64,000 bases of DNA from Eledone cirrhosa (Eukaryota). This document shows positions 4,206 to 64,000 of this stretch, in pieces. Where the stretch lies: the NCBI GenBank assembly GCA_964016885.1, contig OZ024758.1:32488001-32552000 (forward strand), written 5' to 3'. Numbering within the stretch: the first letter of the stretch is position 1; every line of letters begins with the position of its first letter. The translations under genes were made by a program, and so were the position numbers. The notes under the pieces were generated by a model. It worked only from the letters and a program-made list of their open reading frames with translations, was not told where the DNA came from and did no database searches.

Positions 4206-7108
4206 ATCAAGGTACAAATTGTTGTCCTTGAATGCACGTAGTCTATGTAATAAGATAAATCTTTTTGACTCCTACATCAAAAGTATTGACCCTGACTTCA
4301 TTACAGTCACGGAAACTTGGGCACATCCCTTACTCTGTGATGAGGTTTTCAGCATAACTGGTTACAACTTGTTTCGTAAAGACCGCATTAACCGTCGTGG
4401 TGGTGGTGGTGTAATGGTCTATGTTTGGTGAAACTTTTCAGCAATTCCTAGTGTTGATTTGAACCAATCACAGCAAGAGGTATTTTTCTGCATATGACCA
4501 TGTCAACACTGCTACTTGGAGTCGTTTACCGTCCCTCAAATTACCATCAGGACACTCAACTTTCTGATATCCTCAGAGCTGCTGCCAGGAAAACAGCCAC
4601 TTATGTTTTTATTGCAGGGGGCTTCAATCACCCTGAGATTGACTGGGAAACTTTTCATTGGCCGCAAAGTGCAAATGACTTCCTTGAGCTAGTGCTGGAC
4701 TCGAATTGGTCCCAAGTAGTCACCTCCCCAACAAGAGGTGACAACACTTTGGATCTACTCTTCACCACTACTCCTGAAACGGTTATTAGTGTTACTACTG
4801 AGGAACCTTTAGGTGACTCTGATCATGCTATGATCATTGCCAATCTATCCCTCGTGGGCAGTAACAAAAACCACAACCATCTCCAAACTGCTCAGTTTGA
4901 CTGGAATAAAGCAGACTGGAACTGTTACTGGACTGAGCTGCAACGTCCAAACTGGCTTGAGTTCTACGACTCTGGAGATGTCAACACTGTACTCCAGAAC
5001 ATCCTGAACTCAATATGGACAGCATGTGCAGCATCGGTGCCACATAAGCAGAAAAAACATCCCAAAAGTGCAATTTGGGAGACTGCAGCAGTCCGTCTTG
5101 CCAGGAAAGAACGTTGTAATGCTGAACGTGAGTACAAACTGCATAAATCAGATATCAAATAGGAAAAAGCAAAATAAATCATCCAACCATCTCATGTAGG
5201 TGACAAAAAAGGCAGTGCTTGAATTTGAGCAGCGCATAGCAACCAACCCTGACAGTAAGATGTTCTGGAAGTATGTTCACCCAAAGCAGAGGTCTCACTC
5301 TCCAGTTGGTCCTCTTCGCAATCCCCACACAAGCCAGGTTACTGACAACTCCAAGGAATGCGCAGAACTCATTACTGAATGCTATGCAGACATTTTTACT
5401 GTTGAAGACCAGAGTGTACCATCTCCACCATCTCTAACATCAAATTCCATAACAACTATGGAATTTACACCTGCAATGCTGCGACGTCACCTTAAAAATA
5501 AACGCAACCATGCCTCTCCTGGTCTTGATGATGTTACGTACCTGCTTCTTAAACGTGGTGGGTACTTCCTTCTGCACCAGCTATCACACTTCTTCCAATT
5601 CTGTTTGAACAATGGTGCTACTCCAGAACAGTGGAAAACTGCCAGTGTCATTCCTCTGTTCAAAAAGGGTGACTGCACATCACCTGTGAACTATCGTCCA
5701 GTCAGTCTTACTAGCTGCATTGCCAAACTGATGGAATCCTGTGTCAGAGAAACCCTTTGGAACTTCTGGAACTCTCACAGTCTTATCCGGCCCTCACAAT
5801 TTGGATGTATCCCTAACTCCAGCTGTTGTGATCAACTTATCGAGTTTCTTGAAGACATCACCCGGATCACTGATGGCAGCTCATGGGTGGATGTTGTTTA
5901 CCTTGACTTTGCTAAAGCTTTCAATTCTGTGCCACACAAAAGACTTATGGCAAAACTCTCTGCAATGGGTGTGAAGGATGATCTTTTTAACTGGTTGAAG
6001 TCTTTCATTCTCAGTCGAAGAGAGGTAGTCATGGTTCTAGGACAGCATTCCTCACCATATGAGATGTCATCTGGTGTACTGCAGGGATCTGTTCTTGGCC
6101 CCCTTTTGTTTGTGGCAGATATTAATGACATAGATGCCAACTTAAAGAATGCCACAGTACTGAAATATGCAGATGACATCAAGCTGTACCTTGAGATAGA
6201 AAAGACAGATCCCGAACACTATAGATATTTCCCGCAATCTGACCTGGACGCAATGGAGCAATGGATCATGGACTGGCAACTCAAGCTGGCTGTGGACAAG
6301 TGTACCACCATGCATTTTGGGAGTAAAAACCCAGTGTCCACTTACTCCCTCCACAACACTAATATCAAGAAATTTCTTGTGAACGCGACCTGGGAATTAC
6401 TGTCAGCAGTGATTTGTGTTGGACGAAGCACGTCTCTAAAATTGTCAGGAAGGCCGAGAGTGTGTTAGCATCACTCAGCAAGACCTTTGTCAGCCGCTCT
6501 CCAGCTATCTATTTAAAGCTGTATATAGCTATGGTGCGGCCACAATTAGAATTCTCATCATCAGTCTGGAACCTCTATCTTGCTTAGAACATTGACTGCC
6601 TGGAAACTGTTCAGAGACGTGCAACCAAGCGAATACCCTCCATCAGGCATCTACCATACTCTGCCTTGCTTCCCTGGGCATGGATACATCTGGCAACTGA
6701 CTTGGTAAACACCCACAAAATTATTAACCATCTTGCCAACAACACCCCTGAGTACCTTTATGATTTCCATGTGTCTAACAAACGTGGGCATGCCCACAAA
6801 GTCAGAAAACAGCACAGCTCCCATGACTTTCGGAAACATTTTTTCATGCTCAGTGTTGCTGAAGCATGGAACAAACTACCTGCATCAGTTATTAGCTGTT
6901 GAGACACTGCATCCTTTAAAACATCCATGCTTCCTGAGATTCGCTAACACACCACCTAATATTCCATCTCCATCCACACACTCACATGTATATCATGACT
7001 CATACACTATTCACTTTCCTGACATTTGTATATTATTCTATGTACTATACTAGCACCTTTGATGAGTTGTAGTGCACCTGAGCACTGTACACAATAATTT
7101 CATTATTT
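4206..7108 (+). mobile_element. CR1-clade LINE, complete but decayed ORF2 (APE endonuclease + RT) and 3' UTR
   Basis: ORFs 4219-4431 (SLNARSL, ITVTETW, RKDR..RGGG), 4494-5162 (YRP, GGFNHPEIDW, PTRGDNTLDL, LGDSDH) and 5200-6468 (NYRPVSLTS, YLDFAKAF, QGSVLGPLLF, KYADD); stops and frameshifts; tail AATAATTTCATTATT. Confidence 0.95.
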
Positions 7109-15465: not shown

Positions 15466-18400
15466 CTACAGGCTGATATAGAGAGAAGACCCATTCACTC
15501 TGGCCATTCTCCCTACTTTCACCCACCTTTCATAAAACTTGCTGGGGTAGAGCACCTCTCTCGCCATTCTGATCCTTCTTTTAAAATGGTATTTGAAAAA
15601 GGGGACCAGTTGTTGGCCGGAGAGAAAGGTGTCTGACCTCAGCCCTTTCAGCCTCGTCCACCATACAACTTCTTTAGCCATGGCTATCACACAAAGAAAA
15701 ACCGCCTCTCCTTCGTTTTTGAAAGGGGGAGGCGGTTTGATCGTGACAATGGACTCGGTGGTCAACCGGATTGGTCCCACCCTCGACAGTAGTCGTTCCA
15801 CATAGCCCCACAGGTCAGTAATGCCTGGGCAGTGTACGAATGCGTGCGCAACGGTTTCGTCGTCATGCATGCATCTCGGACAGATCTTATTCAAAGGATC
15901 CCTACCCAGGCTCCCATGCCTGTGGAGCTTGTCTCGAACGGGTAGAGCCCCTCGGTAGCACTGCCAAGCCAGGGACTTTTGGAAGTTGTCCATCGGTCCA
16001 GGGCCAAACGTCCTACCGAACAGACTGGCCAGTTCATCTTCCTCCATGCCTAGAGCTTCTCCGAGAGCATCGTCGCACCTGCTGTGTACCAACCCTCTAT
16101 AGAATGTCGAGGTGGAGTCTCCACTGATTGCCGGGTCTGCTTTCCAGAGGGCCGTGAGCGCCTGGGCACATTCAATGTGCCAGTCGCCCACTTTTCTCGG
16201 TCTTTGCTTGACCCAGGATTGCAGCTCGGTGAGCGAGACGAGTCTAGGAAAGGCTCGCCTCACAAACGGGGACCACACCGGTTGACCGGTGAGGAATACC
16301 TGGAGGTGCCGTAGCCTTAATGCGTGTTTACGCATCTGTAGCCACGGCATCCCCAGCCCTCCTTTCGAAGGGTGTTGACAGCAGATGGATCTCCTCACCA
16401 AAAGGGTCCGCTTGTTCCAAAGAAATTGGAACAGCGCGCACTCCATTTTGGCAAGTCTTTTCACTGGGCAAGGCACGACGGTCAAGCGGTAGTAGATGAC
16501 GGATGCTATATAAGTATTTGCCACCTCCGCTCGACCTTTCAGGGATAGTTTGCACTGGGCCCACTTCTGGGTGAGTGCAAACACCCTGGCCGTTACCTCG
16601 TTCCAGTTTTTCTCCACCTGGAGGTCTGGTCCGAACCAGACCCCGAGCAGCTTCACCGGGCCCTCCGTCCAGCGTCCGATGACGTCATTGGAGGGCATCG
16701 GTTTGCCTCTCCATGTTCCGGGTTGCAAACCGATGGAATTGTCCCGGTTCAGCTTGGCTCCTGTAAACCTTTCATATTCCTCCAGTAAGGTGCCGATCTC
16801 ACCGATTTGCGAGGTTTTTCGACACCATTACTGTCACGTCATCGGCGTAGGCCAACGCCGCTTTCTGCAATCCCGGTTCCAAAGGGATGCCTTGCAACCG
16901 CTCCAACTTCCGCAGTAGTGGCTCAAGAGCCAGCACATACAGAAGGGAGGAGAGAGGGCATCCCTGTCGGATGGATCGCATGATTTGGAACGGCTCCGAG
17001 AGGTGGCCGTTCACCTTGACCCTTGAGCAGACGTTGCTGCTGTGCATCGCAGCAATCTAACTCCTGAAAACGGGTCCGAAGCCTGCCGCCGCGAGCACCG
17101 CATCCAGGTAATGATGGTCAACCCTATCGAAAGCTTTAGATTGATCCAAGTTGATCAGGGCCCCACCAAAGCCGGGTTCATTCCCTACCCTCTCTATGAT
17201 GTATCGCATAAGGTGGAGATTGTCGTGAATGGACCTGGACGGGATTGCGCATGTCTGCGCTTCTCCCACCAAGTTTCCGACGACAAGCGCCAACCTCTTC
17301 GCTAACACCTTGGCCAAAATCTTTAACTCTGCATTTAGCAGAGTTATGGGCCTGAAGTTACTTATGTCATCCCCCTTGTTCTCGTCCTTCCTCACCAGCG
17401 TAACTACGCCCTTGGCCACAGAACTGGGAATTCTCCCGTTCTGCTGCCAGTTGCAGTAGACCGCTTCGAGGATATCGGAGAACAAGTCCGGCATCGCTAC
17501 ATATAGCTCGGATGGTAGACCATCGAGACCCGGGGATTTGCGTTTGCCGCATTGGCTCAGCGCCGCTCCTATCTCAGCAGCTGAAATCGGCCTTTCGCAG
17601 GACTTCGCCTCCCCGTCCGAGAGGCGCGGCAGACCATCGAGGTATGGATTGAAATCCATAGTCTCACCCGGCGCGCCACCCCTCCCGAACTGTCGTGCAA
17701 AGTGCCGCTGAAAGGCCGCACACATCTGCCCAGGTTCAAGGATCACACGCCCATCCTGGTCCTTCAAAGACCGAATCGTGGACTTGTTCCCACTTTTTGC
17801 CTCTGTCACTCGGGCCCAGCTAACAGCTTTGGCTCCCTCATTACCCAGAGCACGTATTTTACTCCTGACAACGCAGCCCTCGTGCTTCACATCAAAGAAC
17901 TGGTCTAAGGCCATTCTTGATGCCAGCACGCTGGCTACATTGCCACTCCTAATCGCCTCTTCTACTCTATCTACTAATTCCCTTTCCGTCTTGTTCCTAT
18001 CCCTTGCTAATTCCTGACTAAAACCTATCGATTCTATTCTAATTGCTCTCTTAAGAGAGCTCCACCACCTGTTGTTGACAATTACCCCTGTCAAACTCTG
18101 CTTAAATAATGTGCTAATCCGTTTACTGTAAGCTTTGCTTCTCGGTAAGGACAAGTTCAGCTTCCAGTAACCGGGTCCCTGTGTATGGGTTCTATCAAGG
18201 TTGGCTATGCAGGTCACTAACTTGTGATCCGAATAGTCAACCATGAACATTTTTGGACAGCTAAATGTGTCCCTATCCTTATCTCTAACTCGGACCCTAT
18301 CTAGGTACAACCTAGATGTTCCGCTGCGATTGGTCCACGTCCATAGTGGTACAGTCGGAAAATGTAGTCGATATCTATCGGCCAGGTCAAATCGGCCGAT

Positions 18401-18893
18401 TAACCTTTTGAAGCTTTTACACCCCCCTCTATTGGCACATGCCCCTACATAGTCCCAACGTGCATCCAGGATACCATTCCAGTCCCCCACTAAAAGCAAG
18501 GAGCGGTACGTTCCCAGAAAAGTTTCCAGACGTTGGAAGTAGTTCGGCCGCGCTGCCCAACACAGCAATTAGTCTAAGGGCTCCACTTTCACTACTGCCG
18601 ACGTCTAAAACCACCAGTCGACCCTCCGGGTCCAGGTGCACCTTCTGTATGGCGGGGCCCAGGTGTTTTCGCAGCAGAACGACAACTCCACTCCCACCCC
18701 CCGGTTGACAGAGAGATGCGAAGATCTCAAAGTCGTCGAAGAGGGGCGCCAGTTGGCGCTCGCTGCTGATCCTCGACTCGCAAATAGCCATTACATCCAT
18801 TCTATGCGACCTGAGATCGTTTAAAAGTTTGCCTTGTTTCCAAGACAGTCCCAGGCCGATTACATTCAGACACCCAACTCTTATATCAGCCAT
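15466..18893 (-). pseudogene. Tx1 ORF2 (APE endonuclease, reverse transcriptase, C-terminal CCHC finger), about 3 frameshifts
   Basis: GCLNVIGL, MAICES, GDWN, WTW, YSDH, GYWKLN, KSPGLDG, NFRPITLLN, DQSKAFDRVDH, IRQGCPLS, AYADD, CPRC..ETVAHAFVHC across ORFs 18429-18893, 17057-18568, 16799-17047 and 15466-16728. Confidence 0.93.
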
Positions 18894-18961
18894 GTTGGTT
18901 AAAAGAGGAAGGACCTACCTGTTCTGCTCCTGAGGAGCAGGTTGCACAATATCCATGGGCG

Positions 18962-20611
18962 TCATGGAGGGGTTGTTTGGTGGGGTGGGGTGTTTGGTGA
19001 GGTGTGGGTGGGGAAACGTTTCAAGAGGACACGGTTATAGGGTCGAGTACATGTTTTCCCCACGTCCTCAGGAAAGTTCTCACTTAGTTTTGCATAGGTG
19101 TCCATTGGGAGTCTTATCATTTTTAAATGCGGTTTGTTGGCCGCGCTTGCAAAGAATTGCCCTTCAGTTTCCACCGAAGGGTCTTTGTGTATTGTTTTTA
19201 CTAGTTCTTTGTTATTTGTGTTAATGCATGTATACTGTTTTATTTGTGTTGTGTTTGTTTGTTGTGCTTGTGTGTGCTTGCGTTTTGTTGTATGTGTTAT
19301 GTTTTGGGGTGGGGTGGATTTTGTTTGTTCTGTTTGTGTTGTTTTTGTTGGTGGTTGTGTGTTTGTTTTGTTTATGTTCGTGTGGTGTTTTCTTTTTTTT
19401 CTTTTTACAGGTTGGAAGGGTCCCCCTTCTTCGTCACTAGGTGCCATTTCAGCTGGGTCCTCGTCTGTGCTGTCGGGTAGTGATGTATTTTGGGGTTTTG
19501 TTGTGTTTGTGTGTGTTTTTGGAGTTGTTTTGGGTGGGACCGTGTCTTGTGTTATTTTTCCGTGTTGTTTTTGTTGTTGTTGTTGTTGTGGTGGTGGTGG
19601 TGGTGTGTGGGGTGTAGGCAAAAGAGCCTTTTTTTTTGTCAATTGAGGACAGGCAGCCCTTAGATGACCCCTGCTTGAACAGTAGTAACATATGGGCCTC
19701 CTACCCTCGGCTGAAATATGTACAAATGTTTCTCCATCGAGGGACACCCTCTGTGGTATTCTAGCTATTCGTTCTGGTCTCATTTAGACCAGAACCTCCA
19801 CGCTCAAACCGCCGAAAACGTCTGTGGTGACTTCTCCTACTGAGAGGATTCCGTCCTCGTCTATTAAAAATCCTGTAAGTACCCAGGAAATGCATGCATT
19901 TGGCCGGATTCCGGAGACTCTTATTTTTTGCATTCTTTTCCCCAAATATATGTGGAAAAATGTATGTAGCTTGGAAACAATTGGCAACACAGAGTATTTC
20001 CTAGCCGTCAGTTGATCCTTCATTAGCACCGTTATATTCCCATAGAGTGGCCCTTTTTGTATGAACGATATATCACTCCACACATTTTTTAGGACCAGCT
20101 CAATTTCTTTTTGGGATAATTGAGCTGGTTTCCTTGTTATGTTGGAAATTGTTCTGAAAGATATCGTTCTTAGTGTCGTGTCTCTTTTGATTTCTTGTGG
20201 GGAGGTGATTGTGAAGTCTCCTCCTTCTTTGAAAGTTACATACTGTTTTGCTTCCTTCATCTTTTCTCTCAGAGTTGTAATGTCCAGTTGCTTGCAGGTC
20301 TGTGTTTTCCGGACCGCCTGTGCAAAGGAGGCACCAGTAGTGGGTTCGCTTTGTTTGGTGTTATCGTTATTTTTTCCCTGGTTGGTGTTGTGACTATTGC
20401 TGTTATTGTCATTGTTGTTTTTGTCTGCGTTTATGTGACTTTCTGGGTTTTCACCCATTTTTACAAATTTTTCTTTTAATTCCGTGTTCCATGTTTCTTT
20501 TGCAGAAGTGAGGAGGGAAGACTTAGAGCATTGTGCTTCTAGCTTCTCTGTATCACCTTTCTTAGGGAGCGTGGTTTTCTCGTTAGGATGAGATGTGAAA
20601 ATTCCGTCCAT
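18962..20611 (-). pseudogene. Tx1 ORF1 (gag-like CCHC knuckle), one in-frame stop at 19784-19786
   Basis: ORFs 19784-20611 and 18962-19783 abut in the same frame; CYYCSSRGHLRAAC knuckle; basic FQPVKRKKRK motif. Confidence 0.85.
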
Positions 20612-21301
20612 TTCTATCAGTTTGCCGTAATAAATTTTAAATGTAAAATTTGCCCCAAAAAGGGGCGAAAATAAATAAACTCAAAGTCTGACGACCCAGG
20701 CAAGGGGTTAACATATATTACAGTACAAAAACAATAAATCAAAACTCACTTTTGAGTAAGTAAATCCAACTCGGTAGCCGAGCTTGTTCACACACGTCAA
20801 CACACGTCTCTCGTATACGAGATGTTATGTGAGATATTATGTGAGGTAAAGTCTTTACCTTGAAAATACAATAGTATATATAGAGTAATGTTAATGTTAT
20901 GTGAGATATTATGTGAGGTAAAGCCTTTACTGTGAAATACAATAGTATATATAGAGTAATGTAAATGTTATGTGAGATATTATGTGAGGTAAAGCCTTTA
21001 CTGTGAAAATACAATAGTATATATAGAGTAATGTAAATGTTATGTGAGATATTATGTGAGGTAAAGCCTTTACTGTGAAAATACAATAGTATATATAGAG
21101 TAATGTAAATGTTATGTGAGATATTATGTGAGGTAAAGATTTTACTATTTCAGAAAGGATATATTGCACATGGCATTTAGTTTTCAGTAAATACACATTT
21201 AGGCAGTGGTGTGTGTCTATATATATATATGTATGTGTGTCGGGTTCAATCGGGGGTAACCACAGTAAGTAAGGTACTCAATACATAGCAGAGTATAAAT
21301 G

Positions 21302-21389
21302 TTTAATATAGAAATGGCTTCTACAGGACTAGTACTGTTTCCTTTGAATGAAACAGTTCTCGTCCTGTAGAAGCCATTTCTATATTAAA
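21302..21389. repeat. Short fold-back hairpin from a Penelope-like terminal repeat (3' half of an HHR)
   Basis: TTTAATATAGAAATGGCTTCTACAGGAC..CTGTTTC / GAAACAG..GTCCTGTAGAAGCCATTTCTATATTAAA; same family at 28113. Confidence 0.75.
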
Positions 21390-21544
21390 TATATCTATAT
21401 CGTTCACTGAATATACACACATTCTTGGGTTGTGTTGTTATTCCTATCCCTGTTGTTGCAGTTGTCATTGTTGTGTTGTTGCTGTTGTTGATAGTGTTCT
21501 TGTCATTGGTATTGTTGTTGTTGTCTATGTTATCAAAATAAGTT

Positions 21545-22580
21545 TTAACTATTTAGCATTTACATTACTCTATATATACTATTGTATTTTCACAGTAAAT
21601 GCTTTACCTCACATAACATTTACATTACTCTATATATACTATTGTATTTTCACAGTAAATGCTTTACCTCACATAACATTTACATTACTCTATATATACT
21701 ATTGTATTTTCACAGTAAAGTCTTTACCTCACATAATATCTCACATAACATTACTCTATATATACTATTGTATTTTCACAGTAAATGCTTTACCTCACAT
21801 AACATTTACATTACTCTATATATACTATTGTATTTTCACAGTAAAGGCTTTACCTCACATAATATCTCACATAACATTTACATTACTCTATATATACTAT
21901 TGTATTTTCACAGTAAAGGCTTTACCTCACATAATATCTCACATAACATTTACATTACTCTATATATACTATTGTATTTTCACAGTAAAGGCTTTACCTC
22001 ACATAATATCTCACATAACATTTACATTACTCTATATATACTATTGTATTTTCACAGTAAAGGCTTTACCTCACATAATATCTCACATAACATTTACATT
22101 ACTCTATATATACTATTGTATTTTCACAGTAAAGTCTTCACCTCACATAACATTCACATTACTCTATATATACTATTGTATTTTCATGGTAAAGGCTTTA
22201 TCTCACATAATATCTCACATAACATTTACATTACTCTATATATACTATTGTATTTTCACAGTAAAGTCTTCACCTCACATAACATTCACATTACTCTATA
22301 TATACTATTGTATTTTCATGGTAAAGGCTTTATCTCACATAATATCTCACATAACATTTACATTACTCTATATATACTATTGTATTTTTGCGGTAGAATT
22401 AAGGTATGGTTCTCAAAATGAATAATATAAAAATATTTTTATATTATTAATCTCACATAATATTTTTATATTATTCATTTTGAGAACCATACCTTAACCT
22501 CAGTATGAGCAGCCGGTTTGAACAGAAAGAGGTGAGAGAATTCTGGCCATATACGGCTGGTTTAAATGCTAACGTGTTAA
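21545..22580 (-). mobile_element. piggyBac-type MITE carrying 13 minisatellite units (60/66/72 bp)
   Basis: TTAA at both ends; unit TTACTCTATATATACTATTGTATTTTCACAGTAAAGGCTTTACCTCACATAA[TATCTCACATAA]CATTTACA; internal hairpin at about 22399-22497. Confidence 0.85.
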
Positions 22581-33828: not shown

Positions 33829-34202
33829 TATACAATATATTAACAAATGGAAACTATATTTATAAAACCATATTTATTTTATTATACATATTTCAAGGGC
33901 CACCAAGGCAAATTATGGTGCGCTTTCATCAGATGAAATACAATACAGATTAGTTTTATAAATAAATATTGACATACCCTGAAAAAAGACAACCTTAACG
34001 GTTGGAGCTTCCTGGATAGGAACCTCCAACCGTTAAGGTTGTCTTTTTTCAGGGTATATCAATATTTATTTATAAAACTAATCTGTATTGTATTTCATCT
34101 GATGAAAGCGCACCATAATTTGCCTTGGTGGCCCTTGAAATATGTATAATAAAATAAATATGGTTTTATAAATATAGTTTCCATTTGTTAATATATTGTA
34201 TA
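33829..34202. repeat. Fold-back palindrome (about 185-bp arms, 4-nt loop) with an HHR-like motif in each arm
   Basis: GGAGCTTCCT-GGAT-AGGAACCTCC centre; CTGATGA-AAG.GCACCA..TGGTG..CTT-GAAAT-AT-GTA at 34099-34146; a third, non-palindromic copy at 35105-35352. Confidence 0.9.
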
Positions 34203-35464: not shown

Positions 35465-35855
35465 TATATTAATAAGAGGAATTCCAGCTTTGTTTGATTT
35501 ACTCGTTTTATTTACAATCTTTTAAAATTTATAATGGTATTATAATGAAATAGTATGATAGAATATTAAATTCTAAGTGTTAATTGAACAAGTACTTTCA
35601 TGCTTTCGCAATCTTCAGGTTCATGATATGTGGTGACAGTCAAGTTTGCAATTTTCAACAGTTGAAAATTGCAAACTTGACTGTCACCACATATTATGAA
35701 CCTGAAGATTGCGAAAGCATGAAAGTACTTGTTCAATTAACACTTAGAATTTAATATTCTATCATACTATTTCATTATAATACCATTATAAATTTTAAAG
35801 GATTGTAAATAAAACGAGTAAATCAGACAAAGTTGGAATTCCTCTTATTAATATA
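35465..35855. repeat. Fold-back palindrome (about 195-bp arms, 1-nt loop at 35660)
   Basis: ...GCAATTTTCAAC-A-GTTGAAAATTGC...; a few transition mismatches; about 35-nt tail on the left. Confidence 0.92.
35698..35734 (+). ncRNA. Minimal hammerhead ribozyme (mirror copy at 35586-35622, minus)
   Basis: GAAC-CTGAAGA-TTGC(GAAA)GCAT-GAAAG-TA-CTT-GTTC; palindromic stem III AGTACT. Confidence 0.75.
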
Positions 35856-41889: not shown

Positions 41890-44800
41890 ATAACACTAAC
41901 CATGTTAGGGCTGCGCACGGTAGTGGGGTGGCTAGTGAGGCCATGTGTGAGAACCCTCCCGAGCGTCATCAAGCAATCGCACAGCAGGGAAAAGAATGAG
42001 ACGTCGCATCTCAGAGTTGCCACACTTAATGATGGCACTCTAACAGGTAGATCTGGTGAGATAGCGGAGATACTGGAGAAAAGGCAGGTGGATGTGTGCT
42101 GTGTGTAAGAGGTGAGACGGAGAGATGCCTCTGCAAGACTAATCGCAGGCAAACATCGTAGTTATAAGCTTTTCTGGGTGGGTAATGATAATGGGTTTAG
42201 GGGAGTAGGCATTTTCCTGGCTGAGAGATAGATCAATAGGACAATAGAGGTAGTTCGAGTTAATAATCGAATAATTAAGCTTAGATTAGTTGTAGGCAGG
42301 AGACTACTGACAATCATCTCTGCCTATGTTCCCCAAGCAGGCCTAGGCAAAGAAGAGAAAGACTGCTTTTACGAGCAACTTTTACAAACAGCCGCAATGA
42401 CAGAGGACGGAGACATCGTTATGCTAGCAGGGGTCTTCAATGGTCATGTTGGATGTTCAATTTTGTGATGCACATGCACTACTAACTTCCAGAAACCTAC
42501 CAGCCACCTAATAACCTACAAATCAGGCGAGCACATAAGCCAGATTGACTTCTTGCTAGTTAGGCAATGAGACCGATAGATGGTGTCAAATACTAAGGCA
42601 TACCCCGGAGAAGAATGTACCCCACAGCATAGGTTAGTCATTAGTGACATCTCAGTAAGCAAGAGACAGGAAGGTGTGGAAAAGAAAGGTCTGGAAGCTA
42701 AAAGACCTTTCACTAAAATATAAATTTATAAAGCCCTTCAAGACGTGTATGACGAAAAAGAAGATGATTTAGAGTCGTATGACATAGATGATAACTGGAA
42801 TTTCTTACGTGACAACTTACTACAGGCTACTGAAGAAATTTGCGGCCGGAGCAGAGCTCCATCTAGACAAAGAGTGACCTGGTGGTGGAACAGCACAGTA
42901 GATAAGGCCATTAGAGACAAAAGACTAGCATGGAAGGCTTGGAAAAATGGTGGGAGTAGAGAAGGATACACAGCCGCTAAGAGAGAAGTTAGACGTCAGG
43001 TGTATTTAACATGCAGGGAGGCTGAGAGTAGGAGGTTTGCCAATGTTCTGCGACGGGTAGATCAGAGGCGTGCGGTGTTCCACATTGCAAGGCAGTGTGT
43101 CAATGCAAATCACGATGTTGTTGGAGATAAATGTATCTGGGATGATGCCGGTGTACTTAGTGTCACGAATGATCAGAAAAAGGAGGCCTGAAAATGTCAT
43201 TATGAAAGACTGATGAATGTGGAGAATGAATGTGAGAGAGAGAAATTACACCCAGTAGATCTGACAGAGGGACCAGCTATTGAGATTGACTAATATAGGG
43301 TCCAAGAGGCAATTAAGGAAATGTAAAATGGTAAGGTGCTGGACCGTCGGGGATAGTTGCTGAGATGCTGAAGGCATCAGGAGAAGTAGGCACTAAACTG
43401 GTGGCATGCATCATCAATGAAGCTATATATGGTGGTGTCATACCCAAAGACTGGTGCAGCAGTATTCTCATAAATTGCTATAAAGGTAAAGGCGATGCTC
43501 TGGAGAGGAGCAATTATAGGGGTACAAAGCTGATGGATCAGGTTATGAAAGTGGCAGAGAGAATATTAGAGCAACTGTTTAGAGAAAGGGTCAGATTAGA
43601 TGAGGTGCAGTTTGGTTTTGTGCCTCGGAAAAGTACAGCAGATGCCCTCTTCTTAGTGAGACAATTGCAAGAGAGGTTCTTAGAGAAGAATAAGCCACTA
43701 TACTTAGCCTTTGTTGACCTAGAGAAGGCCTTTGATAGGGTGCCCCAATCTGTCATCTGGTGGTCCCTAAGGAAACTAGGTGTTCAGGAATGGCTTGTGA
43801 GGACAGTGCAAACTTTGTACAGAGGTGCTGTCAGTAAAGTCAGGGTAGGAATGGAGTTTAGTGAAGAATTCCAGATACAAGTAGGAGTACATCAAGGTTC
43901 AGTCCTCAGCCCGCTCTTGTTCATTATAGTCCTCCAAGCCATAACAGAGGAGTTTAAGACTGGCTGTCCATGGGAACTTCTCTATGCTGACGATCTGGTT
44001 CTTATAGCAGAATCAGTAGAGGAGCTAGAGAATAAATTCTGGCTATGGAAACAGCAGTTGGAAGCAAGAGGACTGAGGGTGAACCTAGCTAAGACAAAAG
44101 TGTTGATGAGTAGAAGAGAGGACAAAACTCTGATGTCGACAAGGAAATGGCCATGTTCGATATGCAGAAAAGGAACTGGCATAAATTCTATAAAATGTAC
44201 ACAATGCAGATCTTGGGTACATGGGAGATGTAGTGAGATAGCAGGCAAACTAACAGGTAAGGAAAAATACGTATGCAGTAGATGTACAGGGAAATTTGAC
44301 AGTAGAAGTCGCATTGATAGACACATTTCTCAAATGCAGGTAGGATCTATAGAAGTGGTTGATAGCTTCCAGTACCTAGGTGATCAGATTAGCATGGTAG
44401 GAGGGTGTTCTGGGGCCATAGTATCTAGAGTAAGGATGGGTTGGAAGAAGTTTAGGGAGCTGCTTCCTCTGCTGACGAAGAAGGGTTTCTCCCTGCGTAT
44501 GAAAGGCCGGTTATATGATGCCTGTGTGAGGTGCGTGATGCTGCATGGTAGTGAGATATGGGCAGCAACTGCAGAGGATATGCAACGGCTGGAGGGAAAT
44601 GAAGCAAGCATGCTCCGTTGGATGTGCAATGTCATTCTGTCTGAACGACCGAGCATGGATGAGTTGAGAGAGAAACTGTGTTTAAGAGGGATAAGTTGTA
44701 GTGTGCGGAAGAGTAGACTGCGATGTGATGTGCATGGAGGATGACCCATGGGTGAAGAAGTGCCAAAAAATCCCAGTAGAATGAAGACGCAGTAGAGGAA

Positions 44801-47101: not shown

Positions 47102-47659
47102 TTAACCCTTTAGCATTTAAACTGGCTCAGAATTCTCTCACCTCATTCTGTTCAAACCAGCTGTAACTGGCTGCTCATACTGATGTTAAGTTATTGTTCT
47201 CAAAATAAATATCAAAATCTCATAGATTATGTGAGATAATTATGTGAGGTAAAGCCTTTACCATGAAAATATAATAGTAAATATAGAGTAATGTAAATGT
47301 TATGTGAGATATTATGTGAGGTAAAGCCTTTACCATGAAAATACAATAGTATATATAGAGTAATGTAAATGTTATGTGAGGTAAAGCCTTTACCATGAAA
47401 ATACAATAGTATATATAGAGTAATGTAAATGTTATGTGAGATATTATGTGAGGTAAAGCCTTTATTGTGAAAATACAATAGTAAATTCAGAGTAATGTAA
47501 ATGTTATGTGAAATGTTATGTGAGGTAAAGCCTTTACCATGAAAATACAATAGTATATATAGAGTAATGTTAATGTTATGTGAGATATTATGTGAGGTAA
47601 AGCCTTTACCATGAAAATACAATAGTATATATAGAGTAATGTAGATGATAAAGGGCTAA
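47102..47659 (+). mobile_element. piggyBac-type MITE with 6 minisatellite units
   Basis: TTAA-CCCTTTAGCATTTAAAC ... GTAGATGATAAAGGG-CTAA; 60/72-bp units at 47228-47645. Confidence 0.88.
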
Positions 47660-59310: not shown

Positions 59311-59377
59311 TATATATATATGTATACATATATAAACAATTAAGTCAAAAATGTCTAGAAAGGCCGGAAGATAGGTA

Positions 59378-59422
59378 AATATTGCTGATGAGATGTAACA
59401 ACATCGAAACTAGTCCAATATT
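59378..59422 (+). ncRNA. Intact minimal type I hammerhead ribozyme 1
   Basis: AATATTG-CTGATGA-GATG(TAACAA)CATC-GAAAC-TA-GTC-CAATATT; predicted cleavage after C59415. Confidence 0.88.
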
Positions 59423-59845
59423 CCTTGTCTGGCTTTCTGGAGAATAGAGGAAAGGTGTTTCCTCGAAAACCAGTATCACTCTAAAAACCGGTTTGTCTGT
59501 GTGTTTACATACAGAATAGCTGGACACTCACAGTAAAGTGACCAGTGAAAAACTCAGTACATCTACATATGTACACGTGTGTGTATTCATATGCATACTA
59601 GTATTTCAGTATACATATGTGGATGTACATTTTTGACTTAATTGTTTAAGCGTCAGTCATACAAAAGTGAGTTACAAACGAAACGAAATTTAATTTCGTT
59701 TCGTTATTTGTTTTTTTATCGTCTCCGTTGAACCGGTACGTACTCACGCTCTATGCAAATTGGTCTGCCCACTACTAATTTTCATAGAAAAGGCATATAA
59801 CGATATGTGCTTTTACGATTCTCTAGAAAGGCCGGAAGATAGGTA

Positions 59846-59890
59846 AATATTGCTGATGAGATGTAACAACATCGAAACTAGTCCAATATT
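59846..59890 (+). ncRNA. Intact minimal type I hammerhead ribozyme 2
   Basis: Identical to ribozyme 1; predicted cleavage after C59883. Confidence 0.88.
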
Positions 59891-60379
59891 CCTTGTCTGG
59901 CTTTCTGGAGAATAGAGGAAAGGTGTTTCCTCGAAAACCAGTATGACTAAAAAAAACGGTTTGTCTGTGTGTTTACATACAGAATAGCTGGACACTCACA
60001 GTAAAGTGACCAGTGAAAAACTCAGTACATCTACATATGTACACGTGTGTGTATTCATATGCATACTAGTATTTCAGTATACATATGTGGATGTACATTT
60101 TTGACTTAATTGTTTAAGCGTCAGTCATACAAAAGTGAGTTACAAACGAAACGAAATTTAATTTCGTTTCGTTATTTGTTTTTTATACATATATATATAC
60201 ACATATAACCAAAGATTAATATGGTTTATTGATTACTCAATGAACATAGTTTTACAATAGATTATAAGAACTCTACAAAGAAGTTTTCTGGAGTTATTAA
60301 TATTATTCAGTCAATACTGCCAATACTGGAATTGAACCATCAAGACTGTTGAGGTATGTCATACATCAATTCATGTATT

Positions 60380-60438
60380 TTATCTGATGAGGACGTACTG
60401 AAAAAACAGCACAGTAACTTCGAAATATATACAATAAA
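60380..60438 (+). ncRNA. Hammerhead-like motif in another pLTR remnant
   Basis: CTGATGA-GGA.GTACTG..CAGTAAC.TTC-GAAAT-AT-ATA-CAATAAA; stem I poor. Confidence 0.45.
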
Positions 60439-61921: not shown

Positions 61922-61956
61922 GGACGACGTTTCGGGCATTAGCCCTTCATCAGGAG
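61922..61956 (-). ncRNA. Penelope-type hammerhead-like motif
   Basis: Minus strand: CTC-CTGATGA-A-GGGC(TAAT)GCCC-GAAAC-GTC-GTC; stem I not formed. Confidence 0.5.
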
Positions 61957-62473: not shown

Positions 62474-64000
62474 GTGTAGCAGGGTGGATGCCTGGAGCGG
62501 TGGAGCAGGGTGGGTGCCTGGAGCGGTGGAGCAGGGTGGGTGCCTGGAGCGGTGGAGCAGGGTGGGTGCCTGGAGCGGTGGAGCAGGGTGGGTGCCTGGA
62601 GCGGTGTAGCAGGGTGGATGCCTGGAGCGGTGGAGCAGGGTGGATGCCTGGAGCGGTGGAGCAGGGTGGGTGCCTGGAGCGGTGTAGCAGGGTGGATGCC
62701 TGGAGCGGTGGAGCAGGGTGGATGCCTGGAGCGGTGTAGCAGGGTGGATGCCTGGAGCGGTGGAGCAGGGTGGATGCCTGGAGCGGTGTAGCAGGGTGGA
62801 TGCCTGGAGCGGTGGAGCAGGGTGGATGCCTGGAGCGGTGTAGCAGGGTGGATGCCTAGAGCGGTGGAGCAGGGTGGATGCCTGGAGCGGTGGAGCAGGG
62901 TGGATGCCTGGAGCGGTGGAGCAGGGTGGATGCCTGGAGCGGTGGAGCAGGGTGGATGCCTGGAGCGGTGGAGCAGGGTGGATGCCTGGAGCGGTGTAGC
63001 AGGGTGGATGCCTGGAGCGGTGGAGCAGGGTGGATGCCTGGAGCGGTGGAGCAGGGTGGATGCCTGGAGCGGTGGAGCAGGGTGGATGCCTAGAGCGGTG
63101 GAGCAGGGTGGATGCCTGGAGCGGTGTAGCAGGGTGGATGCCTGGAGCGGTGTAGCAGGGTGGATGCCTGGAGCGGTGGAGCAGGGTGGATGCCTGGAGC
63201 GGTGTAGCAGGGTGGATGCCTGGAGCGGTGGAGCAGGGTGGATGCCTGGAGCGGTGTAGCAGGGTGGATGCCTAGAGCGGTGGAGCAGGGTGGATGCCTG
63301 GAGCGGTGGAGCAGGGTGGATGCCTGGAGCGGTGGAGCAGGGTGGATGCCTGGAGCGGTGGAGCAGGGTGGATGCCTGGAGCGGTGGAGCAGGGTGGATG
63401 CCTGGAGCGGTGGAGCAGGGTGGATGCCTGGAGCGGTGTAGCAGGGTGGATGCCTGGAGCGGTGTAGCAGGGTGGATGCCTGGAGCGGTGGAGCAGGGTG
63501 GATGCCTGGAGCGGTGTAGCAGGGTGGATGCCTGGAGCGGTGGAGCAGGGTGGATGCCTGGAGCGGTGTAGCAGGGTGGATGCCTAGAGCGGTGGAGCAG
63601 GGTGGATGCCTGGAGCGGTGGAGCAGGGTGGATGCCTGGAGCGGTGGAGCAGGGTGGATGCCTGGAGCGGTGGAGCAGGGTGGATGCCTGGAGCGGTGGA
63701 GCAGGGTGGATGCCTGGAGCGGTGTAGCAGGGTGGATGCCTGGAGCGGTGGAGCAGGGTGGATGCCTGGAGCGGTGGAGCAGGGTGGATGCCTGGAGCGG
63801 TGGAGCAGGGTGGATGCCTAGAGCGGTGGAGCAGGGTGGATGCCTGGAGCGGTGTAGCAGGGTGGATGCCTGGAGCGGTGTAGCAGGGTGGATGCCTGGA
63901 GCGGTGGAGCAGGGTGGATGCCTGGAGCGGTGTAGCAGGGTGGATGCCTGGAGCGGTGGAGCAGGGTGGATGCCTGGAGCGGTGTAGCAGGGTGGATGCC
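62474..64000 (+). repeat. 26-bp G-rich satellite, at least 58 units, running off the window
   Basis: Unit GCAGGGTGGATGCCTGGAGCGGTG(G/T)A; the variant pattern repeats at 728 bp (28 units). Confidence 0.97.

Follow-up and report, generated by a model that had tools for sequence, protein, structure and literature searches.

The 64,000-nt stretch of the Eledone cirrhosa genome analysed here (the window) contains one of about 2,000 or more insertions of an ORF-less, ribozyme-bearing 468-base repeat. Judged by its sequence (tandem hammerheads, a non-coding unit, dispersed copies, target duplications longer than 4 bp and a self-paired monomer), the element is a non-LTR retrozyme, and its insertions appear to give unusually direct genomic evidence for a driver and for rolling-circle reverse transcription. 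The explanation we consider probable is that self-cleaved 468-nt RNA is ligated to a circle, which is then reverse-transcribed in a rolling fashion by a Neptune-type Penelope enzyme.

Twin type I hammerheads in a two-armed insertion

A pattern search of the window recovered two identical hammerheads starting at 59385 and 59853, at the spacing of 468 nt given in an earlier note on this DNA. Both match Rfam Hammerhead_HH9 at 38.9 bits (E 3.5e-7), below the gathering score of 52; Rfam microRNA and other non-hammerhead matches in the window were rejected as noise from TA repeats. The ribozymes had been described as minimal, but stem I reaches ~25 bp once extended and carries a conserved bulge, loop II is conserved across families, and helix III comprises 1-2 bp and a palindromic loop. 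By stems I and II, the conserved loop nucleotides and helix III, the predicted ribozyme is a canonical type I hammerhead; in the canonical metazoan design, which combines a weak helix III with a palindromic loop, cleavage occurs as a dimer (available sections of PMC4209133). Pairing of the two copies with each other over 6 bp is predicted to be possible (-6.2 kcal/mol). In an alignment of ten natural variants from the window family and its sister families, six of 16 stem pairs (stems I and II) have changed at both partners, and pairing is found in 96.9% of alignment cells, exceeding all 500 shuffles and all slid controls; because the alignment rows are related sequences, this covariation score is not a probability.

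The element is framed by an 11-bp target duplication with ambiguous ends (59323-59333, in a (TA)n tract, and 60184-60194, with (TA)n beyond). The last base of the left copy overlaps a short inverted arm (59333-59353, minus strand), which is the reverse complement of unit positions 275-295 and stops at a "short" end site; what had been read as a 22-nt inverted 5′ tag is thus 21 nt long and forms the second arm of the insertion. The long arm (59354-60184, plus strand, as are all features below) holds 1.78 tandem units, at 59354-59821 and 59822-60184, and stops at a "long" end site near unit position 363. Where they overlap, the two units are 98.9% identical, with four substitutions, none inside the ribozyme; the ribozymes are therefore identical as previously stated, and the count of about five spacer differences is corrected to four.

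Hammerhead 1 with its extended stem I spans 59354-59441 (core 59385-59415) and hammerhead 2 spans 59822-59909, with predicted cleavage after 59415 and 59883. Cleavage at both sites would release a 468-nt monomer (59416-59883), likely a circle. Between the two end sites lies a "tail" of ~70 nt (59648-59716 in the first unit), which has a homologue in a sister family and includes a perfect hairpin (59677-59705) in the predicted fold; it recurs as the terminal tail of the long arm (60116-60184) and is missing from the inverted arm. The predicted fold also has a long internal hairpin (59557-59628) that is kept in the sister family. The monomer folds at -153 kcal/mol (z -8.1; none of 100 shuffles is equally stable), with a predicted circular fold of -148.9 kcal/mol, and the three hairpins named in the earlier note are all present in the predicted fold. 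Its claim that no coding domain is recognisable also holds: the doubled unit has no long reading frame (longest stop-free frame, 60 codons), and the RT and GIY-YIG ORF of an autonomous EN+ Penelope-like element was not found in the unit or its insertions. The frames and arm structure define a short, non-coding unit without LTR structure.

The window yields 17 hammerhead pattern matches against 3.5 expected. Further hammerhead-like cores lie at 33891-33932, 34099-34140, 35251, 35596-35724, 41312, 44472, 60384-60425 and 61930-61953; two of these are inverted pairs, and for the 35596/35702 pair a match was found in the terminal repeat of a Neptune-type family (L112). Other repeats in the window include a 26-bp GC-rich minisatellite with 59 copies and a 72-bp tandem repeat in both orientations (62474-64000, 20822-22388 and 47227-47647), and LINE-type reverse transcriptase frames occur at 15466-20680 (minus strand), 148-1700, 4458-6468 and 43335-44744.

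A dispersed family with sister families

The exact 31-nt core occurs 1,633 times in the 3.0-Gb genome (control 0) and a looser core 40,658 times (control 23), a count that takes in sister families. A search with the unit gave at least 226 matches from the 40 of 775 candidates scored, and exact junctions with (TA)n number 1,995 for the long end and 941 for the short end. The earlier note had proposed that genome copies would tell ORF-less arrays from units attached to a Penelope ORF: the copies are ORF-less, tandem and dispersed, and the unit is not the terminal repeat of any examined Penelope. Sister families have periods of ~420-540 nt, and one can be aligned to the unit over its full length and shares both end sites with it. 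Those represented by L140, L143-L146, L075 and L007 show the same two-armed, two-ended structure, carry a U-U mismatch at the base of stem II, and apparently outnumber the window family.

A young subfamily has units identical across 14 loci, and young loci have one or two haplotypes in common. Variants that recur periodically are common to the units in L089, L097, L098 and L108; these periodic variants and arrays exceeding 28 kb indicate that old arrays also grow at the DNA level. One satellite-like unit array of more than 28 kb, with higher-order variant patterns, occupies G000:C1:95,642,100-95,669,900 (L097, L251, L252), and other arms are 14-15 kb long (L151-L152, L250). Three contig sets from other organisms, from runs of unspecified kind, contain sequence 90-99% similar to the family. 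In one of these sets the similar sequence is a single 495-nt contig that returns on itself by 467 bases, which is not evidence of a circle because a tandem array would give the identical joint.

Insertions have two arms and two fixed ends

Insertions lie in (TA)n and consist of two arms set head to head, their 3′ ends pointing outward. The rule for their ends was derived from 79 loci, representing 80 of the first 100 long-end junctions listed minus one duplicate (16 others had been sampled earlier and 4 were left out). The second arm ends at unit positions 285-297 in 52 of the 79 loci and is a tiny short-end arm in 10, one of them doubtful; in 11 it is missing or is not retrozyme, in 4 it ends at other positions and in 2 it runs beyond the stretch examined. 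Counted by site, the short end (~293) is found on the other arm in 61-62 of 79 loci, and none of these loci, which were chosen by their long end, has the long site (unit ~363) at both arms. One apparent short-short pair (C1:141.067 Mb) was seen among the first 100 short ends listed, from the listing alone. Inner ends are spread over the whole unit, and target duplications measure 10-12 bp where flanks are informative (L034, L102, L184, L221 and L230). The window locus follows the rule, with its 21-nt short arm, long-end long arm and 11-bp duplication.

In sequence terms, two fixed ends, one per arm, are the Penelope "tail" signature of an inverted 5′-truncated copy with a one-sided tail. Penelope insertions are described as carrying an inverted truncated copy and a tail at one end only (available sections of PMC8557442 and PMC3846280), and the Anolis Poseidon enzyme in vitro starts reverse transcription at two internal sites, with both DNA strands cut and extended (PMC11167929).

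Where the second arm is missing, the flank past (TA)n is sometimes mirrored (L047, L179 and L196, and the TA tracts of L033 and L042), as if a cut TA end had folded back and primed DNA synthesis. L047, L179 and L196, considered as RNA chimeras, were rejected as mirror copies of flank across (TA)n. Filler DNA from unrelated retroelements occurs at the head-to-head junction of L219 (65 nt) and of L195.

Both arms derive from one sequence

Comparison of the two arms at 46 loci found one discordant site in 14,490, against 5.4% between loci, and therefore both arms come from one sequence. An arm is longer than one unit in 55 of 79 loci, and both arms are in 19, so the template was a circle or a multimer. 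Only 1 of 109 inner ends falls at the cut (positions 60-66), where 1.6 are expected, and 516 of 517 units have an exact spacer at the cut site; the template therefore had no free end at the cut. At loci chosen without regard to the ribozyme, its 16-nt core has no fixed changes, compared with 118 elsewhere (p 0.016), and the sole exception in the core is a tolerated C-to-U at the cut site. Conservation is non-significant when the core is compared with unit-private changes (p 0.18), and likewise for the whole ribozyme in the first sample (p 0.41).

Variant spectra were compiled from 138 loci (751 pieces) after dropping L105, L024 (mis-split pieces) and L178 (duplicate of L177). New fixed alleles were defined as those that differ from the ten nearest loci and are present in all units of their locus; polarity is thus set by the nearest sampled loci, which are a small share of the family and mostly on contig C1. 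The 51 such alleles comprise 25 A>G, 10 T>C, 8 G>A, 3 C>T and 5 others. The A>G share is far above that of unit-private changes (25/51 vs 55/542, p 8e-11), which are strand-symmetric (55 A>G vs 57 T>C), whereas the fixed alleles are strand-biased (25 vs 10, p 0.01), also when distinct sites are counted (22 vs 10, p 0.033). In an earlier spectrum of 62 loci, A>G was enriched and the strand bias non-significant (p 0.10). Within-locus clustering of the A>G alleles is seen (18 pairs vs 5.9, p 0.0002), with five at L019 and three in 11 of 11 units at L165; fixed A>G sites include unit positions 93, 398, 402 and 403.

These alleles fit deaminated adenosines on one sense RNA molecule whose single unit was copied repeatedly, and they fit an ADAR-edited monomer circle copied repeatedly. 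ADAR activity is high in octopods. Since 19 of the 25 A>G sites sit in A-U pairs, wobble-tolerant selection for pairing could also favour them; the excess of G>A over C>T (8 vs 3) runs counter to such selection, in small numbers.

The genomic evidence, which is indirect, favours a circular monomer as template, and we consider it likely that the circle is the main one; linear templates in some cases and later growth at the DNA level probably contribute too. The foremost rival is an uncleaved linear read-through multimer, made from homogeneous source arrays that lengthen by unequal crossing-over and mobilised by the same Penelope driver, with little need of the ribozyme for mobility. At L087, two alleles missing from the inner units are common to the outermost units of both arms, an in-register pattern that fits a linear multimer or gene conversion; 13 cross-arm pairs of alleles at the level of single units occur in 94 loci carrying 421 such alleles. 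Also in its favour are the periodic variants and longest arrays noted above, the few haplotypes of young loci, as from a master array, and in vitro work in which uncleaved RNA was the main substrate and the Anolis ribozyme was dispensable for insertion (PMC11167929). However, stochastic edits along a multimer would differ by unit, whereas all units of a locus carry its clustered A>G alleles, and 38 of the 51 fixed alleles are present in both arms. Among 114 units with at least two alleles at the level of single units, only 2 pairs are shared across loci. Core conservation and stem covariation likewise argue against this linear template, which we regard as unlikely. L105, a 798-bp inverted duplication including flank, was dropped as a test of the template, as a linear template and a rearrangement are indistinguishable there.

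Considerably less probable is a cleaved linear monomer on which the enzyme jumps from end to end without covalent circularisation. Such a template would likewise fix the edits of one molecule in every unit and would require an active ribozyme, but jumps should add or lose bases and truncate at the cut, which the exact spacers and the unclustered inner ends contradict.

Neptune-type Penelopes as candidate drivers

The genome is rich in GIY-YIG Penelopes, with 10,597 candidates, of which 150 were scored and 42 loci examined. Two families with a CX4CxxC linker are labelled NepA and NepC here. Pfam RVT_1 and GIY-YIG domains were identified in L109 (NepA) and L115 (NepC family), and the linker in L109 and L241, in the order RT, linker, C-terminal GIY-YIG. 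We take both families to be of Neptune rather than Nematis type; a protein search returned 1,076 mostly unnamed relatives, with no clade name among them. Insertions of NepA and NepC have the same two-ended structure as the retrozyme, with tails of ~65 nt and ~40 nt, respectively, and at least 40 NepC copies at 99% identity mark this family as young. Comparison of the end sites of the retrozyme and both Penelope families revealed nothing in common in sequence or fold apart from pyrimidine-rich ends.

Retrozyme sequence joins Penelope sequence without intervening (TA)n at four loci, three with NepC (L033, L167, L189) and one with NepA (L046). In the left arm of L189, 250 nt from the end of NepC, 99% identical to young copies, are followed in the same sense by almost three retrozyme units, and the left arm of L167 joins ~2.4 kb of NepC to 40 nt of retrozyme. 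At L033 a young 13-unit arm stands opposite 1 kb of NepC, and at L046 a retrozyme arm stands opposite NepA. Two of the four fall within the 79 unbiased loci. In our estimate they are probably co-integration products. They could also be deletions between neighbouring insertions, as three of the four join like end with like end, the junctions carry short inverted remnants, and the flanks show no informative target duplication. An inverted duplication of the L033 flanks was ruled out on inspection, and L224, L188, L100 and L106 were rejected as chimeras, being neighbours in a TA tract.

The integration marks and these junctions support the suggestion of the earlier note that Penelope mobilises the family. 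The element is very probably non-autonomous and Penelope-mobilised; NepC is the best driver candidate and, by a modest leaning, the main present driver.

The unit itself has no blastn match to NepA or NepC better than E 0.017, and none in their pLTR end; in a pLTR comparison covering four Penelope families, the terminal-repeat similarity that would mark the unit as a pLTR derivative of NepA or NepC was not found. A related explanation is that the unit is the pseudo-LTR of an as yet unfound autonomous Penelope, the arrays being truncated copies. The insertion architecture is identical, of 57 retrozyme families in Xenopus, 24 have matches among known elements, almost always Penelope termini (bioRxiv 10.64898/2026.07.22.740005), and the GIY-YIG loci examined are a small part of the candidates. 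Against it, no constant unit-ORF junction occurs in 28 loci (from the first 100 exact cores listed) or in the 79 long-end loci, the unit is present in none of the 42 GIY-YIG loci (two weak matches are a TA-rich hairpin and a sister-family insertion), and the examined Penelopes bear minimal, often U3:A8, ribozymes instead, all of which makes a pseudo-LTR very improbable. A DNA-level satellite or palindrome-forming repeat spread by recombination with no RNA step, as the few satellite-sized arrays and the mirrored flanks at L047, L179 and L196 might suggest, is scarcely credible, because the outer ends are fixed at two sites and the inner ends random, target sites are duplicated, the A>G alleles are strand-biased and the ribozyme stems covary.

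Most NepC copies (L241:1499-5149, L242-L246, L118 and the L107 flank) have two overlapping frames of 455 and 784 codons. In NepC, NepA and a third type of copy, CATTTTTTAGAC lies in this overlap; it includes a heptamer, U UUU UUA, whose phase would suit a -1 ribosomal frameshift, and a splice acceptor is the other reading. To our knowledge, Penelopes have been described as single-ORF elements. A killifish Neptune has two ORFs without overlap in the available sections of PMC12602865, and our literature search found no paper on a Penelope frameshift. Three Neptune-type families (L109, L241 and L051-type loci) carry U3:A8 minimal hammerheads with an ACCGGT palindrome in their terminal repeats; in the NepC hammerhead GCA replaces GAA, and this ribozyme may be inactive.

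Discussion

The proposed cycle would begin with read-through transcription of arrays and RNA cleavage, probably by two ribozymes paired via the ACUAGU palindrome. The monomer would be ligated by a host RtcB-type ligase, as set out in the available sections of PMC7229834, and the circle occasionally edited by ADAR. The GIY-YIG nuclease would make staggered cuts in (TA)n, each DNA end would prime cDNA at one of two internal sites, as with the Anolis Poseidon enzyme (PMC11167929), and each cDNA would make many turns on one sense-strand circle before both cDNA ends are joined head to head; old arrays would grow at the DNA level as well. We put forward only tentatively, as falling a little short of an even chance, a fuller version in which an enzyme dimer sits on one ribozyme-made circle, primes both ends at two sites 70 nt apart and carries out dual rolling-circle reverse transcription that leaves the ADAR edits of that molecule in every repeat, sometimes taking up a second RNA and so generating retrozyme-Neptune hybrids.

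The family resembles the animal non-LTR retrozymes of PMC7229834, as described in its available sections, in its ORF-less tandem units, highly paired monomer, GC content below 50%, target duplications longer than 4 bp and coexisting Penelopes, and axolotl HHR_Amex1 of the same work in its canonical type I hammerhead with a weak palindromic helix III. Its 468-nt unit exceeds the ~170-400 nt given there, and two arms, two fixed ends, driver chimeras and fixed A>G clusters are undescribed in those sections. That work showed RNA circles in coral, mussel and axolotl and proposed Penelopes as drivers and a circular template, whereas the present family is known from genome sequence alone.

EN+ Penelopes of Neptune/Nematis type and Poseidon PAc, in what is available of PMC8557442, PMC11167929 and PMC3846280, share tandem and inverted 5′-truncated arms, a one-sided tail, AT-rich or (TA)n targets and a hammerhead upstream of the ends, with duplications of 8-10 bp. 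The retrozyme differs from them in having no ORF, a tail of ~70 nt rather than 30-40 nt, both arms as multimers of one short unit, and a canonical ribozyme with extended stem I. For the retrozyme family, the bias of A>G towards the sense strand speaks against antisense self-priming, as presented in the available part of PMC3846280. Chlamys MRC1-type elements are likewise ORF-less, multicopy, head-to-tail and Penelope-moved, but share 3′ sequence with their driver and belong to a clade without canonical hammerheads (PMC8557442, available sections). Vertebrate retrozymes also appear as non-autonomous Penelope partners ranging from monomers to long multimers; there, Penelope co-occurrence and pLTR similarity were reported, local DNA amplification was favoured and the mechanism was left open (bioRxiv 10.64898/2026.07.22.740005), whereas here no similarity of the unit to its candidate drivers was found, and the case is built on insertion ends, junctions and variant spectra.

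Our search of the literature found no report of this family, of two-armed retrozymes, of driver hybrids or of editing footprints; supplements, Repbase and Dfam, which may list the family, were beyond its scope. Rolling-circle copying of a single RNA circle has long been proposed for such elements, and the same search found no demonstration. The available sections of PMC7229834 and the 2026 preprint raise the questions of the mobilising enzyme and of the circle as template, and PMC8557442, in its available part, poses that of the origin of the Penelope inverted arms and one-sided tail. The family offers thousands of young insertions, two exact priming coordinates, a young candidate driver and a natural molecular barcode, and all three questions are therefore testable with an RNA of 468 nt. 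As a tool, too, an enzyme able to turn a small circle into long cDNA and insert this at (TA)n would be of interest. If the fuller version of the cycle is true, these insertions would be the first record in a genome of an animal ribozyme circle being reverse-transcribed by the rolling-circle route, they would provide a general account of the head-to-head, one-sided-tail structure of Penelopes, and they would reveal a way for RNA edits to be inherited and to drive the evolution of the element.
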